NCBI GenBank assembly: GCA_046704365.1 | Contig: JBJKRZ010000034.1 | Coordinates: 2,522-66,521 of the forward strand | Reading direction: 5' to 3' | DNA from: Acidimicrobiales bacterium | GTDB lineage: Bacteria; Actinomycetota; Acidimicrobiia; Acidimicrobiales; UBA8190 | Length of the DNA stretch: 64,000 bases | Shown here: piece after piece, positions 3,090 to 55,058 of the stretch | Numbering within the stretch: position 1 is the first letter of the stretch | Layout: each line of letters begins with the position of its first letter | Program-made: the position numbers and the translations under genes | Notes under the pieces: model-generated | What the model was told of the DNA's origin: nothing | The model's database searches: none | The model's input: the letters and a program-made list of their open reading frames with translations, nothing else

Positions 3090-4079
3090 TCAGCGATCGA
3101 TCATCTGCTGCGCGCTTTCCGAGTACCGCTCTCCGTGCGCCACGATGTGCGCTTCGTCGAGCTCGGCCAGATCGCCGGATGTGAGGGTGAGATCGGCGGC
3201 GGCAATGTTCTCCGCGAGCCTGCCTTGCTTTGTCGTGCCGGGAATAGGAACGATCCAGGGCTTCTGTGCCAACAGCCAGGCCAATGCGACCTGTGCCGGT
3301 GTAGCGCCTTGGCGGTCGGCGATGCGCGAGAGAAGCGTGACGAACGCCTGGTTGGCCCGGCGTGCAGTCGGGCTGAAGCGGGGCATGGTGTTGCGAACGT
3401 CAGCCTTGTCGAATTCGGTGCTCTCCTCGATAGCCCCGGTGAGAAATCCTCTACCGAGGGGGCTATAGGCCACGAAGCCGATGCCGAGCTGCTCGAGGGT
3501 GGGAAAGATAATCTGCTCGGGGTCCCGCCACCACAGCGAGTACTCGCTCTGGAGGACCGATACCGGCTGAACGGCATGAGCACGCCGGATGGTCTGGGAG
3601 GCGGCCTCGGAAAGGCCGAAGTGGCGTACCTTTCCTTGTTGGATGAGGGCCCCGACGGTTTCCGCGACGTCTTCGATAGCGATGTTCTCGTCCACGCGAT
3701 GCTGATAGAGCAGATCGATCGTCTCGACGCCGAGCCGGTGCAACGAGTCCTCCACCGTGCGGCGAATGGTCTCTGGGCGGCTGTCGAGGCCGGCGGCCCG
3801 TTGACCGGCCCCCACGCCACGAAGATCCCACCCGAACTTCGTGGCGATCACGACCTGGTCGCGGACGGGCTTGAGCGCCTCGCCGACAAGCTCCTCGTTT
3901 GTGTAAGGCCCGTACACCTGGGCAGTGTCGAAGAAGGTCACACCGAGGTCGACGGCGTGGCGAATGAGGGAGATCATCGCCTGCCTGTCTCCGGGCGGGC
4001 CGTAGCTCCAACTCATGGACATGCACCCGAGCCCGATTGCCGACACCTCGAGCCCGGTCCCTAGCGTTCGCCTCTCCAC
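3090..4079 (-). CDS. aldo/keto reductase
   Basis: Motifs [15 protein letters not shown] and IATKFG, plus a C-terminal IPGT. The start is placed at in-frame GTG 4079 ([12 protein letters not shown]) because the longer ORF would overlap the upstream crotonase stop at 4108. Confidence 0.85.
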
Positions 4080-4107
4080 CCGGATTCCCCTCTCGAGTAC
4101 TGCCGGG

Positions 4108-4899
4108 TCAGCGAGTGAACGACGGTGAGCGCTTCTCCGTAATGGCGTCGAAGCCTTCGCGGGCGTCATCACCGAAGAACGTGAGCATCTCCAGTGCCAG
4201 TGACGACTCGAAGATCGGCTGTGCCTGGCGGAGCCAGTGATTGAGGGATCGCTTCGTCCAGCGGATCGACTCAGCCGAGCTCGTGGCGAGCTTGTCCGCT
4301 ACGGAAAGGGCTTCCTCGAGGAGCCGACCCGTCGGCACACACTTGCTGACGAGGCCGATCCTCTCCGCCTCGCGCCCGTCGATGAAGTCGGAGGTGAGCA
4401 GGTAGTACTTTGCCTTCGCCATCCCGCACAACAGTGGCCAGATCATCGTTGCGTGGTCCCCTGCCACCACGCCGATACGCAGATGGCCATCCGTGAACCG
4501 GACGTCTTCCCCGATGATGCTGATGTCAGCCAGCAAGGCGACGGCCAAGCCCGCTCCTACCGCCACGCCATTGATGGCGGATACGATGGGCTTCTCACAG
4601 TTGACGATGTTCAGGACCAGGTCGCGTGCGTCCTCGAGGTTCTCAGCTGTTCTCGAGTAGTTGCCCATGACACGGCGTTCCATCTCGATATCGCCACCGG
4701 CCGAGAACGCCTTGCCAGCACCGGTGATGACCACAGCTCTTGTGGCTGGGTCGTGCTGAACGTCCACCCAGACGCTGGCAAGCTCATGATGCAGCTTCTC
4801 GTCGGCGGCGTTGTACTTTTCGGGACGATTGATCGTCACCAAGAGCACGCCGTTGTCGCGTCGCTCGAAAACAAGACCTTCGTACTTCGACATGTCCAT
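4108..4899 (-). CDS. enoyl-CoA hydratase/isomerase (crotonase fold)
   Basis: [33 protein letters not shown] and a C-terminal [14 protein letters not shown] are typical of crotonases. Confidence 0.85.
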
Positions 4900-5187
4900 G
4901 TGATGAATGTCCTCTCAGGGGTATCTGGTTGATGATGGCGAAATGTCGAAATGAAAGTCTCTGAGCTGACGCGAAAAACGTTCCTGCTTCGCGCTTTTCG
5001 GCACACTTCCACTGCAGAGGCTCGCATCAGCCGGCGAGCCTGCTTTTGAAAGGTGTCGCGGGTGAACATCCAATTCGAACAAACGCATTGTACGGTGCTC
5101 TCAGCAAGAAGAAGGCAGAGCTGGGACGCATCAGGGCGATGATAACACCGGGCTGGGCGTCGTCTTGTCGCGCCGCGTTGCGCGTCG

Positions 5188-53289: not shown

Positions 53290-53330
53290 GCCGGGGATAT
53301 GTGCGAGCGACGGCCTGGGACAGACGGCCG

Positions 53331-54116
53331 ATGAACATCGACATCAGTGACATTTCGGTCAGCTATGACGACGTGGGCAAGGGTGATCCAGTCGTCCTTG
53401 TCCACGGACTGGCCGAAGACAGGCGTTCGTGGGACCAGGTCGTCCGCCTTCTGTCTGAGTCGCGACGGATTGTTTGCTATGACGTGAGAGGCCATGGGTC
53501 GACGAGCACTGGCACCGCCATGGGAACGCTCGAGCAGTTGGCCGACGACTTGGCGAAGTTCCTCGAACGTGTCACTGGCCCAGCCACCTGCGTCGGCTTC
53601 TCACTGGGCGGCACGATTGTCCTGGGTGCTGCTGTCCGCCACCCAGAGCTCGTTCCTCGTTGCATCGTCCTGGGCACGTCCTCTGTGGTCGGAAGATCCG
53701 CCGCCGCCTACTATTCGGAGCGCATAGCTCAGATCGAGTCCGGATCTCCTGCTGAGATCGCCCAGGGGTTGCTGGAAGACACCTCAAGGTCGATCGCAGG
53801 AAGCGGCATCGATGTGGCGGCCGTCGCCACCTACCGTGCCTCCGCCGTCGGCGACGGGGGTGGGTACTTGAACGCCGCCAGGGCGATGCGGTCCCTACAT
53901 GATCAGCCGCTCACGCCGGAATTGGCACGGGTGACTTGCCATGTGGACGTCGTCGGTGCCGATCGGGACACTTTCTGCCCGCAAAAGGCCGCAGACATAT
54001 TGGTGGCTCATCTGCCCGATGCCACCTTTCATGCAATCACCGGTGCCGGCCACTTCATGAACATCGACCAGCCGACAGCGGTGGCAAACCTGCTGGACTC
54101 ACTCCTACCGAGTTAG
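53331..54116 (+). CDS. alpha/beta-fold hydrolase (3-oxoadipate enol-lactonase/PcaD-like)
   Basis: The internal ATG 53331 gives MNIDISDISVSYDDVGKGDPVVLVHG. Also YDVRGHGST, the nucleophile elbow GFSLGG, and a C-terminal GAGHFMN. Confidence 0.8.
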   Translation: MNIDISDISVSYDDVGKGDPVVLVHGLAEDRRSWDQVVRLLSESRRIVCYDVRGHGSTSTGTAMGTLEQLADDLAKFLERVTGPATCVGFSLGGTIVLGAAVRHPELVPRCIVLGTSSVVGRSAAAYYSERIAQIESGSPAEIAQGLLEDTSRSIAGSGIDVAAVATYRASAVGDGGGYLNAARAMRSLHDQPLTPELARVTCHVDVVGADRDTFCPQKAADILVAHLPDATFHAITGAGHFMNIDQPTAVANLLDSLLPS

Positions 54117-54173
54117 TGCAGAACGTGCCCGCTCGCAACGCTCGTCTCAGATCTCGAGAGCTACGGCGGAGCT

Positions 54174-55058
54174 TCAGACGTGGTCGATCAGCCCGGGCAA
54201 GCTGAGAGCCAGTTCGTCGACGGTCCAGCGTCGGTCACCCTGCAGGAGATCGACCGGCCTCCAGGGCTGGAACAACCCAACTCTGCCACCCTGTGCAAAC
54301 AGGATCTTGCCGCTCATGGGGCAACTCTCAGTTGCCAGGTACGCCACGAGCGGGGAGATGTTCGCCGGGTGCCACTCGTCGAATGTGCGCCCATCTACAG
54401 GAGCCTTGCGCAGCTCGCGGACCTCGGGGGTGTCATCAGTCATCCGAGTTCGGGCGGCTGGTGCAACGGCGTTCACTTTGACACCATAGGGCGAAAGCTC
54501 CGCCGCAGCGATGAGCGTAAAGGTGGCAATGCCGGCCTTGGCCGCTCCATAGTTGCCTTGTCCCACGCGCCCGAGTAGCCCGGAGAGGGAGGTTGTGTTC
54601 ACAACAGACGCCCGAACCTGGTGGCCGTCCTCGAAGCGTGCACGCCAATACCTCGCACAATGATACGTCGGCGCAAAGTGGCCTTTCAGGTGGACGCGAA
54701 TTACGGAGTCCCACTCTTCCTCACTCATCGATACGAGCATCCGGTCACGGAGGATGCCGGCATTGTTCACGAGAACGTGGAGATCTCCAAATTCCTGCAC
54801 TGCTGAGTCGAGCAGTCGCCCTGCCCCGGCAAAGTCGGTTACATCCTCAGTGTTGGCGAGTGCCTCTCCCCCCTGATCCCGGATCTCGTCTACGACGCGC
54901 TGTGCGGCCCCGCGGTCGTCGCCGAAACCATCGACGGTGCCTCCCGGGTCGTTGACGACCACTCGTGCACCTTGAGCAGCGAAGAATCGAGCATGCTCTC
55001 TGCCAATGCCGCGCCCGGCGCCAGTGATGATTGCGACCCTTCCGTCGAGCGAGCCCAT
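54174..55058 (-). CDS. SDR-family oxidoreductase (MFE-2/Hsd4A-type 3-hydroxyacyl-CoA dehydrogenase-like)
   Basis: The internal ATG 55058 gives MGSLDGRVAIITGAGRGIGREHA. VVVNDPGGTVDGFG...AAQRVVDEI is typical of the MFE-2 N-domain type. Also YGAAKAG. Confidence 0.8.
   Translation of the reverse strand: MGSLDGRVAIITGAGRGIGREHARFFAAQGARVVVNDPGGTVDGFGDDRGAAQRVVDEIRDQGGEALANTEDVTDFAGAGRLLDSAVQEFGDLHVLVNNAGILRDRMLVSMSEEEWDSVIRVHLKGHFAPTYHCARYWRARFEDGHQVRASVVNTTSLSGLLGRVGQGNYGAAKAGIATFTLIAAAELSPYGVKVNAVAPAARTRMTDDTPEVRELRKAPVDGRTFDEWHPANISPLVAYLATESCPMSGKILFAQGGRVGLFQPWRPVDLLQGDRRWTVDELALSLPGLIDHV

Follow-up and report, generated by a model that had tools for sequence, protein, structure and literature searches.

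The subject of this analysis is a catabolic island in the metagenome-assembled genome (MAG) of an Acidimicrobiales bacterium. The stretch analysed, here called the window, comprises 64,000 nt (positions 2522-66521 of contig JBJKRZ010000034.1, designated C34) of a 3.25-Mb assembly in 388 contigs that is 80% complete. The island extends from position 1986 to 62233 of the window, to which all positions below refer, and has about 61% G+C in a genome averaging 70% (median contig 71%); its flanks have 70-73%. An original prediction had read the part from 3090 to 55058 (hereafter the range; 52 kb, 1.6% of the assembly) as a single supercluster for coenzyme A (CoA)-thioester catabolism. Genes were called with a codon log-odds model, start codons were refined from the gene calls of a sister strain, and the 61 candidate open reading frames (ORFs) were scanned against Pfam; gene calling based on G+C at third codon positions (G+C3) was dropped, its signal being too weak at 61% G+C. 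Sixty relatives were compared, namely five congeners, 31 genomes of the same family and 24 of the same order. An exact-protein look-up with the thiolase (g25) gave no match, and look-ups via homologues and with g43 and g51 led to contigs of a sister strain and of the same strain. The contigs matching the island originate from wastewater and soil metagenomes.

Each family count that had been predicted for the range was matched by Pfam. The range contains four CoA_transf_3 (family-III CoA-transferase) proteins (at 27553, 42072, 46036 and 47410), four ECH_1 crotonases (4108, 32403, 35594 and 41344), a thiolase (28812), a 3-hydroxyacyl-CoA dehydrogenase (3HCDH; 30020), a sole acyl-CoA dehydrogenase (ACAD; 23124), six short-chain dehydrogenases/reductases (SDRs; 17152, 24290, 31584, 36364, 44353 and 54174) and four luciferase-like (Bac_luciferase) oxidoreductases (LLMs; 22100, 33631, 37189 and 43391). 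They are accompanied by two thiamine diphosphate (ThDP) enzymes, two Amidohydro_2 proteins, two metallo-beta-lactamase-type (MBL) hydrolases, two HIBADH-like dehydrogenases, a CMD protein and an alpha/beta hydrolase, and by MFS, NMT1-type ABC and TauE transporters. Three GntR/FCD regulators were found as announced, two of them within the range and one (55169-55828) just beyond it. The MaoC pair is weaker than claimed, as g32 scored 28.6 bits against a cut-off of 27 and the only PDB match of g31 is a faint one to a MaoC-like protein (E = 0.0024). No Rieske protein, ring-cleavage dioxygenase or P450 was present among the Pfam matches of the 61 ORFs, as the prediction had held. It had also noted the lack of an acyl-CoA synthetase; no AMP-binding domain was indeed found in the range, and this absence is without statistical weight because only 0.6 such genes would be expected there (31 in the genome, none on the window contig). 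Genes missing from the earlier tally are a 983-aa Mo-bisPGD enzyme with a fused FeS-NrfD partner (48736-53289), an aldehyde dehydrogenase (ALDH), a TcuA-like flavoprotein, an aldo/keto reductase, a histidine phosphatase and a frameshifted 2-hydroxyacid dehydrogenase.

The catabolic families are 6-60 times denser in the range than in the rest of the MAG, and their clustering exceeds chance (Poisson P from 5 × 10^-4 to 3.5 × 10^-5 for family enrichment). By whole-genome tblastn, the range holds 4 of 16 CoA_transf_3 genes (19 genome-wide by the Pfam model), 4 of 22 ECH genes, 4 of 11 LLM genes and 6 of 44 SDR genes, as well as both Amidohydro_2 and both MBL genes of these types; three of the four GntR-FCD genes of the genome lie here if the one just outside the range is counted. 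Paralogues within the window share 26-42% identity and are therefore old rather than recent local duplicates. No operon maps to a textbook pathway, which agrees with the prediction, and the TcuA-type flavoprotein alone passed an NCBIfam equivalog cut-off.

Two short motifs are shared by the promoter regions of the sub-operons. The first, GTATACAT (R1 box), is present upstream of g5 (6770-6777, minus strand), before g7 (7971-7978, plus strand), before g12 (14596-14603, plus strand) and before g21 (25065-25072, plus strand). These four exact matches compare with 0.13 expected in the window and with five in the whole genome; all four are intergenic, oriented with the gene and placed 47-90 nt before its start codon, and the copy at g12 directly follows a TTGACA hexamer. 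The second, TGTCAGACAT (R2 box), is a near-palindrome found by k-mer comparison of intergenic regions. It occurs between g20 and g21 (25048-25057, plus strand), between g22 and g24 (27345-27354) and between g29 and g30 (33407-33416), that is, three exact matches in the window against 0.12 expected, with four in the genome. Its copies, all in divergent intergenic regions, coincide in part with -35/-10-like hexamers of rightward promoters. The g20-g21 region holds both motifs, 7 nt apart, which suggests coordination of two stages. A scan for terminator and promoter consensus sequences performed no better than on shuffled sequences.

Both motifs fit the GT...AC type of GntR-family operators, and two GntR/FCD genes are suitably placed. 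The g6 gene (6940-7569, minus strand) lies next to two R1 boxes and is likely the repressor that would act on them, while g22 (26058-26816, minus strand), divergent from a promoter with an R2 box, is the likely candidate for the R2 boxes; position is the basis of both pairings. The arrangement resembles the regulons of FadR-subfamily regulators such as LldR, DgoR, VanR and PdhR in the combination of a GntR helix-turn-helix domain with FCD, in divergent transcription and in short GT...AC near-palindromes over catabolic promoters. It differs from them in that two distinct boxes, and with them two predicted regulators, meet at one intergenic region. A motif common to the promoters of several units, as in a regulon, was found for R1 and R2 alike, and the two motifs are the strongest evidence of functional coordination among the sub-operons between 3 and 38 kb. 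As two motifs almost confined to this locus within the genome link many sub-operons, these do not merely lie side by side.

The R1 boxes precede units in the left part of the island. The first transcription unit (TU1; 3090-6687, minus strand) encodes the TcuA-type FAD flavoprotein g5 (5188-6687), crotonase g4 (4108-4899) and an aldo/keto reductase (3090-4079). The g5 product reached 602 bits against a cut-off of 369 for NF006130, yet only 292 against 372.6 for TIGR02485, and no TcuB-like FeS membrane protein is encoded next to it; g4 passes the PRK07327 subfamily model. TU2 (8036-14522, plus strand) comprises genes for a HIBADH-like dehydrogenase, an MBL hydrolase, the ThDP enzyme g9, an ALDH, a small ORF and an MFS transporter. 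TU3 (14650-23116, plus strand; gene calls from the sister strain) begins with the ThDP enzyme g12, a PcaC-like CMD protein (124 bits, cut-off 156), an SDR, an Amidohydro_2 protein and the frameshifted 2-hydroxyacid dehydrogenase, and continues with a HIBADH-like dehydrogenase, a 190-aa protein, a second Amidohydro_2 protein and an LLM. The ACAD g19 and the SDR g20 form TU4 (23124-24997, minus strand), divergent from the MBL gene g21 (25139-26050, plus strand). No CoA-dependent family was matched by Pfam in the approximately 15 kb between 8 and 23 kb.

The best NCBIfam match of the ThDP enzyme g9 is the Xsc subfamily NF005713 (371 bits, cut-off 620); on TIGR03457 (cut-off 676) g9 scored 360 bits and g12 249. 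The best PDB matches of the two ThDP enzymes are BbmA (240-260 bits; 243 for g9) and cyclohexane-1,2-dione hydrolase (CDH; 146-164 bits), and identities as Xsc, IolD or CDH were rejected as unsupported by either the profile or the PDB scores. Homologues of g12 (58% identity) and g14 (50%) lie 8 kb apart on an unrelated contig in ENA together with TctABC, SDR and Ldh_2 genes, which indicates an oxo- or hydroxy-acid module; a scan of JGI metagenomes with g14 gave no match. The top families of ACAD g19 are AcrC (299 bits) and cyclohexanecarbonyl-CoA dehydrogenase (253 bits, cut-off 650), both below cut-off. Two further observations concern TU3. The 2-hydroxyacid dehydrogenase gene (18754-19714) is frameshifted by an extra T near 19159 (AATTTG for AATTG); in the strain of run SRR33270667, about 98.5% identical there, the gene encodes an intact 319-aa protein, so that the frameshift is either a strain-level pseudogenisation or a consensus error. 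The 190-aa ORF (20674-21246), between the HIBADH-like gene and the second Amidohydro_2 gene, belongs to no Pfam family and is kept in the sister strain.

The R2 boxes lie among the CoA-thioester units. TU7 (27553-32369, plus strand) encodes the CoA-transferase g24, the thiolase (660 bits on PRK06205, cut-off 551), the 3-hydroxyacyl-CoA dehydrogenase, a histidine phosphatase and an SDR. The His_Phos_1 gene (30943-31587) sits tightly between 3HCDH and the SDR, 50 nt after the former and overlapping the latter by 4 nt; the role of a histidine phosphatase in beta-oxidation, within a CoA-transferase/thiolase operon, is not obvious. The next gene, g29 (32403-33194, minus strand), encodes a crotonase that scored 308 bits on BadI (TIGR03210, cut-off 467.6), 322 on MenB (TIGR01929, cut-off 342.7), 343 on PRK07396 (cut-off 380) and 308 against PDB entry 2IEX. 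By these profile scores g29 falls within the MenB/BadI clade and is neither equivalog, and it is a candidate beta-ketoacyl-CoA ring hydrolase. From 33631 to 38109 on the plus strand follow the LLM g30, the MaoC-like g31 and g32, crotonase g33, the SDR g34 and the LLM g35. BadH (TIGR03206) is the top-ranked family of g34 at 266.7 bits against a cut-off of 431.2. No MenD was detected in the MAG (best match 67 bits, cut-off 244). The idea of a ring hydrolase in the original prediction thus has substance, given the clade of g29, a genome in which MenD went undetected, a nearby SDR (g34) whose best family is BadH, and the adjacency of a g29/g34-like pair in a genome of the same order (G043). The 151-aa partner of the MaoC-like protein (g31; 34655-35110) has no Pfam family and is likewise kept in the sister strain.

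The LLMs had been proposed as Baeyer-Villiger or F420 enzymes. Two of them pass TIGR03619 (cut-off 166.9), g30 with 185 and g35 with 171 bits, and two fall below, g18 with 105 and g41 with 90. As the genome also encodes CofD (322 bits, cut-off 257), F420-dependent redox chemistry is the likelier of the two proposals, and Baeyer-Villiger oxygenation the less likely. An SsuD-type sulfonate monooxygenase identity was rejected for the LLMs (about 60 bits, cut-off 518).

From 38338 to 48597, on the plus strand, lies a transport and CoA module that consists of a substrate-binding protein (SBP, g36), an ABC ATPase, a permease, crotonase g39, g40, the LLM g41, the SDR g42, the TauE protein g43, g44 and g45. 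Among 5.8 billion proteins, the NMT1-type SBP has practically a single homologue, with 44% identity. The Logan contig that carries it (L022) encodes, in order, SBP, ATPase, permease, two CoA-transferase homologues, TetR, a further CoA-transferase homologue and TauE, followed by acyl-CoA carboxylase genes. The syntenic orthologues share 59% (ATPase and permease), 56% (g40), 46% (g45), 45% (TauE) and 44% (SBP) identity with those of the window. This synteny on an unrelated contig indicates that the SBP/ABC genes, g40, g45 and TauE form an evolutionary unit of their own.

The family-III proteins g24, g40, g44 and g45 all align with PF02515 over profile positions 1-366 (325-414 bits), and share this end-to-end match with Frc, YfdW, CaiB and the alpha-methylacyl-CoA racemase of Mycobacterium tuberculosis (MCR; PDB 1X74). 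The active-site residues set them apart. The nucleophilic Asp motif (Asp169 of Frc/YfdW/CaiB) is present in g24 only (PGYDLIAQ). In g40, g44 and the L022 orthologue of g40 (56% identity), a Gly occupies the position (PGFGKA), and the replacement of PGYD by PGFGK, which separates g40 and g44 from Frc, YfdW and CaiB, would preclude canonical aspartyl-CoA and anhydride intermediates. In g45, AGHD and LVADLGGG align with residues 124-127 and 153-159 of MCR (181 bits) and supply the equivalents of His126 and Asp156, in keeping with the alpha-methylacyl-CoA racemase-like enzyme proposed earlier. These residues point to one transferase, one racemase-type protein and two proteins of possibly different chemistry, and the proposal that four CoA-transferases activate the substrate is untenable. 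A GTDB-wide scan with the g40/g44 alignment gave 80 loci at 35-45% identity, none with more than a few window homologues. The PGFG homologues (L023-L102 and L119-L152), about 36-45% identical to g40, are widespread among Burkholderiales, Rhodospirillales, actinomycetes and Chloroflexota, where they show no synteny with the window. They look like a large uncharacterised clade, and we know of no characterised member. The degenerate pattern PGFGKA(V/A)EA retrieved only g44-like genes (49-60% identity), without the module. Literature searches yielded no paper connecting family-III CoA-transferases with TauE, and nothing usable on the active site of BbsEF, on BbmA or on SoeABC in Acidimicrobiia.

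At the right end, a fused 4Fe-4S/NrfD protein (g46) and a 983-aa Mo-bisPGD oxidoreductase (g47), together Psr/Phs-like, are encoded from 48736 to 53289 on the plus strand. The best PDB match of g47 is Thermus PsrA (114 bits). Like PsrABC/PhsABC and SoeABC-type complexes, the pair combines a Mo subunit bearing an N-terminal FeS motif with a four-cluster ferredoxin and an NrfD anchor; unlike them, it has its FeS and NrfD parts in a single fused protein and a catalytic subunit of 983 aa, and its occurrence in several actinobacterial lineages does not depend on the island. In six genomes of the same family it is kept at native G+C without other window genes alongside, with g47 orthologues at 73-78% identity. 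A second copy (78-83% amino acid identity) is located on the 70% G+C contigs C308/C102 of the MAG itself. More than 8000 relatives of g47 were found, of which the best 120 listed all share at least 73% identity and come from several actinobacterial lineages; those named at this level are Aciditerrimonas and 'Acidimicrobiales bacterium'. A SAR202 or marine origin was rejected in view of these homologues and of the wastewater and soil samples. By this distribution the g46/g47 pair is an independent passenger.

The remaining genes of the range are an alpha/beta hydrolase gene (53331-54116, plus strand) and the SDR g48 (54174-55058, minus strand; passes PRK07791). Beyond the range and still inside the island lies a hydroxyproline-type operon (55169-62207; Pfam and NCBIfam) that encodes the third GntR regulator, a KGSA-dehydrogenase-like ALDH, a proline-racemase-family epimerase (354 bits, equivalog cut-off 376), a DHDPS-family protein, DAO, an 83-aa Fer2_4 protein and a Pyr_redox_2/BFD protein. 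The Fer2_4 ORF (60537-60788, plus strand), between DAO and Pyr_redox_2/BFD, completes a three-subunit set like that of D-hydroxyproline dehydrogenase. The operon matches the Azospirillum-type trans-4-hydroxy-L-proline pathway in the epimerase, the DAO/Fer2_4/Pyr_redox_2-BFD set, the DHDPS-family deaminase, the KGSA-type ALDH and GntR, but its scores lie just below the equivalog cut-offs. This operon would be another passenger, unrelated to the CoA chemistry.

The island as a whole is also present in other assemblies. Logan contigs from other runs represent a strain 98.5-99.2% identical to the window and colinear with it from 1240 to 48834, including the high-G+C g1 end joined to the island; such colinearity of near-identical strains in other runs shows that the window is not a chimera. 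A Logan contig 100% identical to the window covers 50676-60834 and probably derives from the source sample. The independent contig L106 likewise contains the island junction at about 1990, both G+C junctions are bridged by contigs of other runs (1777-2197 and 62038-62303), and short contigs of wastewater and soil runs cover or cross each of them at an equally low depth. Logan contigs of three runs end alike at 48.83 kb, and a further one ends at 50.68 kb. Exact 35-nt words at these sites (48805-48839 and 50671-50705) are shared with the second Mo-gene copy on C308/C102, which explains the breaks as k-mer forks.

Of the usual signs of a mobile island, composition and absence from relatives were found. 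There is no tRNA gene in the island, no integrase or transposase domain among the Pfam matches of its ORFs, and no direct repeat flanking it. The genes g1 (plus strand) and g56 (minus strand), which flank the island in inverted orientation, share a 126-nt (42-aa) tandem repeat (787-1519 and 63117-63454), forming inverted repeats of 215-224 nt on either side of the island that are 73-76% complementary; g56 has a 54%-identical paralogue on C258. Two other contigs among the six longest of the MAG, C151 (35.8 kb, 63.7% G+C) and C299 (42 kb, 64.9% G+C), are also well below 70% G+C; they may represent additional accessory islands, or DNA of lower G+C may have assembled better. Conservation of the whole cluster across related genomes, which the prediction had named as a check, was not seen: a DNA search with the central 20 kb of the island gave no syntenic match in any of the 60 relatives, only isolated gene matches, and only pairs of genes or single modules recur elsewhere.

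Taken together, these observations make it somewhat probable that about 60 kb of separately evolved modules, several of them wired together by two GntR/FCD systems, form a composite catabolic island specific to this species, and not the operon of one pathway. The R1 system, with GTATACAT as operator and likely g6 as regulator, would control four promoters between 3 and 26 kb and a largely CoA-independent 'upper' set. This set would comprise MFS import, beta-hydroxyacid, 2-hydroxyacid and SDR dehydrogenases, lactonase-type MBL and Amidohydro_2 hydrolases, two ThDP C-C enzymes resembling acetohydroxyacid synthase (AHAS) or Xsc, the CMD protein, ALDH, an LLM, the TcuA-like/ECH/aldo-keto reductase unit and the divergent ACAD/SDR and MBL genes. 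The R2 system, with TGTCAGACAT as operator and likely g22 as regulator, would act at three divergent promoters between 25 and 33 kb on a CoA-thioester 'lower' set of g24 transferase, the ACAD again, crotonase and MaoC-like hydratases, BadH-like dehydrogenase, BadI/MenB-type hydrolase, 3HCDH, thiolase and F420-class LLMs. Downstream and co-directional, the transport and CoA module would contribute an SsuA/NMT1-type importer, g40/g44, the racemase-like g45 and TauE. We infer this upper/lower logic from the gene sets and, likewise, an alicyclic or alpha-branched carboxylate as the substrate class.

The R2 set and ACAD g19 together look like a bad/ali-type enzyme set, which lends modest support to an alicyclic-acid route for about 23-38 kb, not for the whole range, and makes a bad-like ring-opening beta-oxidation core plausible. 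The bad/ali cyclohexanecarboxylate genes of Rhodopseudomonas palustris (AliA/AliB, BadK, BadH, BadI) and the analogous mrc ring-cleavage genes in the monoterpene island of Castellaniella defragrans share with this locus an ACAD, an enoyl-CoA hydratase, a BadH-type SDR and a MenB/BadI crotonase, then 3-hydroxyacyl-CoA dehydrogenase and thiolase, in a large catabolic island. Compared with bad/ali, activation here would be by a family-III CoA-transferase instead of a ligase, the scores are below cut-off (BadI 308/468, BadH 267/431, cyclohexanecarbonyl-CoA dehydrogenase 253/650), and the genes occupy three transcription units, with F420-class LLM and MaoC-like genes in between, in an aerobic actinobacterial context.

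Several points weigh against the composite, two-regulator reading. The pairing of motifs with regulators is drawn from gene position, and GTATACAT could be a promoter element, not an operator. A search for RNA runs found none. Neither motif occurs between 38 and 54 kb, and the tie of that segment to the R2 units therefore consists of co-direction and short gaps. Since no enzyme but the TcuA-like protein reaches an equivalog cut-off, steps are assigned by family, and the similarities to BadI, BadH and AliB are all below cut-off. MenD could simply be missing from a MAG that is 80% complete. In a genome of the same order (G043, C78:7001-18653; L109), a gene 81% identical to g29 lies adjacent to an SDR gene 58% identical to g34, directly downstream of sucC/sucD and near groEL, guaA and uvrD, with no catabolic cluster; the function of the two genes may be core, not accessory, in that lineage. 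Finally, the genes flanking the island are also absent from the congeners, so that no empty site can be demonstrated and acquisition by transfer is argued from composition alone.

The strongest competitor is the reading closest to the original prediction, a single dedicated pathway spanning 3-55 kb for alicyclic or methyl-branched carboxylates (cyclohexanecarboxylate-like, monoterpene-acid or naphthenic) activated by CoA transfer. Such a pathway would account for the strong clustering of catabolic families, the bad/ali-like set (CoA-transferase, ACAD, ECH, BadH-like SDR, BadI/MenB-like hydrolase, HCDH and thiolase), the MCR-like racemase g45 and the two motifs that are shared across sub-operons and meet at one promoter region. 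It is nevertheless unlikely, because about 15 kb (8-23 kb) lacks any CoA-dependent enzyme, only one of the four CoA_transf_3 proteins has the nucleophilic Asp, the Mo pair is an autonomous unit, every Bad/Ali match is below cut-off, and the modules recur elsewhere separately, never together. What survives of one supercluster for one substrate is the set of shared motifs and the bad/ali-like core at about 23-38 kb; the 8-23 kb segment and the Mo pair do not fit it. As for the terpenoid, naphthenic-acid or carboxyl-rich alicyclic (CRAM-like) substrates that had been suggested, no evidence identifies any of them.

Less probable still is an island for organosulfonates or sulfo-carboxylates, in which SsuA/NMT1-type import would be followed by CoA-thioester handling and the sulfite released would be exported by TauE or oxidised by a SoeABC-like Mo enzyme. 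The conservation of an NMT1/NMT1_2 SBP and TauE with CoA-transferase-like genes on L022 is consistent with such a scheme, as are the 983-aa Psr/Phs-branch Mo enzyme g47 with its FeS-NrfD partner and the wastewater and soil samples; the TauE and NMT1 families are, however, functionally broad, and no paper links family-III CoA-transferases to TauE. For the left half, Xsc-like ThDP and SafD-like ALDH steps are a similarly doubtful proposal: the best NCBIfam match of g9 is a sulfoacetaldehyde acetyltransferase subfamily (371 bits) and the second-best of g10 is SafD, but these matches are far below cut-off (371 against 620 for Xsc, 331 against 700 for SafD, about 60 against 518 for SsuD-type proteins), and the LLMs are of the F420 class, not the SsuD class. 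The Mo pair occurs without these genes in the six related genomes and has homologues of at least 73% identity in several actinobacterial lineages, a spread that suggests a general respiratory role. A narrower version, equally improbable on present evidence, would make the SBP/ABC genes, the PGFG proteins, the MCR-like protein and TauE, with crotonase, F420-LLM and SDR genes alongside and a Soe/Psr-like Mo enzyme next to them, an uncharacterised route for taking up sulfonated or alpha-substituted carboxylates, converting them as CoA thioesters and removing the sulfonate group. It is a comparably long shot that the Asp-less proteins would there perform a lyase- or isomerase-type step on the thioester, with sulfite leaving via TauE or being oxidised by the Mo enzyme.

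An assembly or binning artefact, either a chimera or a foreign contig of about 61% G+C in a 70% G+C bin, might be suspected from an interior 9 points below the genome in G+C, from the window lying on the longest contig of a fragmented MAG and from the common break at 48.83 kb, but it is largely refuted and very improbable, given the colinear strain with its high-G+C g1 end, the paralogous words that explain the breaks, the wastewater and soil contigs across both junctions, and the paralogues of g46/g47 and g56 on 70-73% G+C contigs of the same MAG.

Wastewater, soil and water all harbour abundant Acidimicrobiia, but hardly any have been brought into culture and little is known of the carbon sources they use. 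The composite island described here is informative rather than exceptional: in one genome, a large share of the catabolic paralogues (4 of 16-19 CoA_transf_3, 4 of 11 LLM and 3 of 4 GntR-FCD genes) is concentrated under two candidate repressors. It offers handles toward substrates in the two putative operator/regulator pairs, a rare SBP, a BadI/MenB-type hydrolase and a conserved family-III clade without the nucleophile. Alicyclic, branched and sulfonated acids are typical of the surfactant and naphthenic residues found in wastewater; should the substrates turn out to be such acids, the island would make a useful marker.

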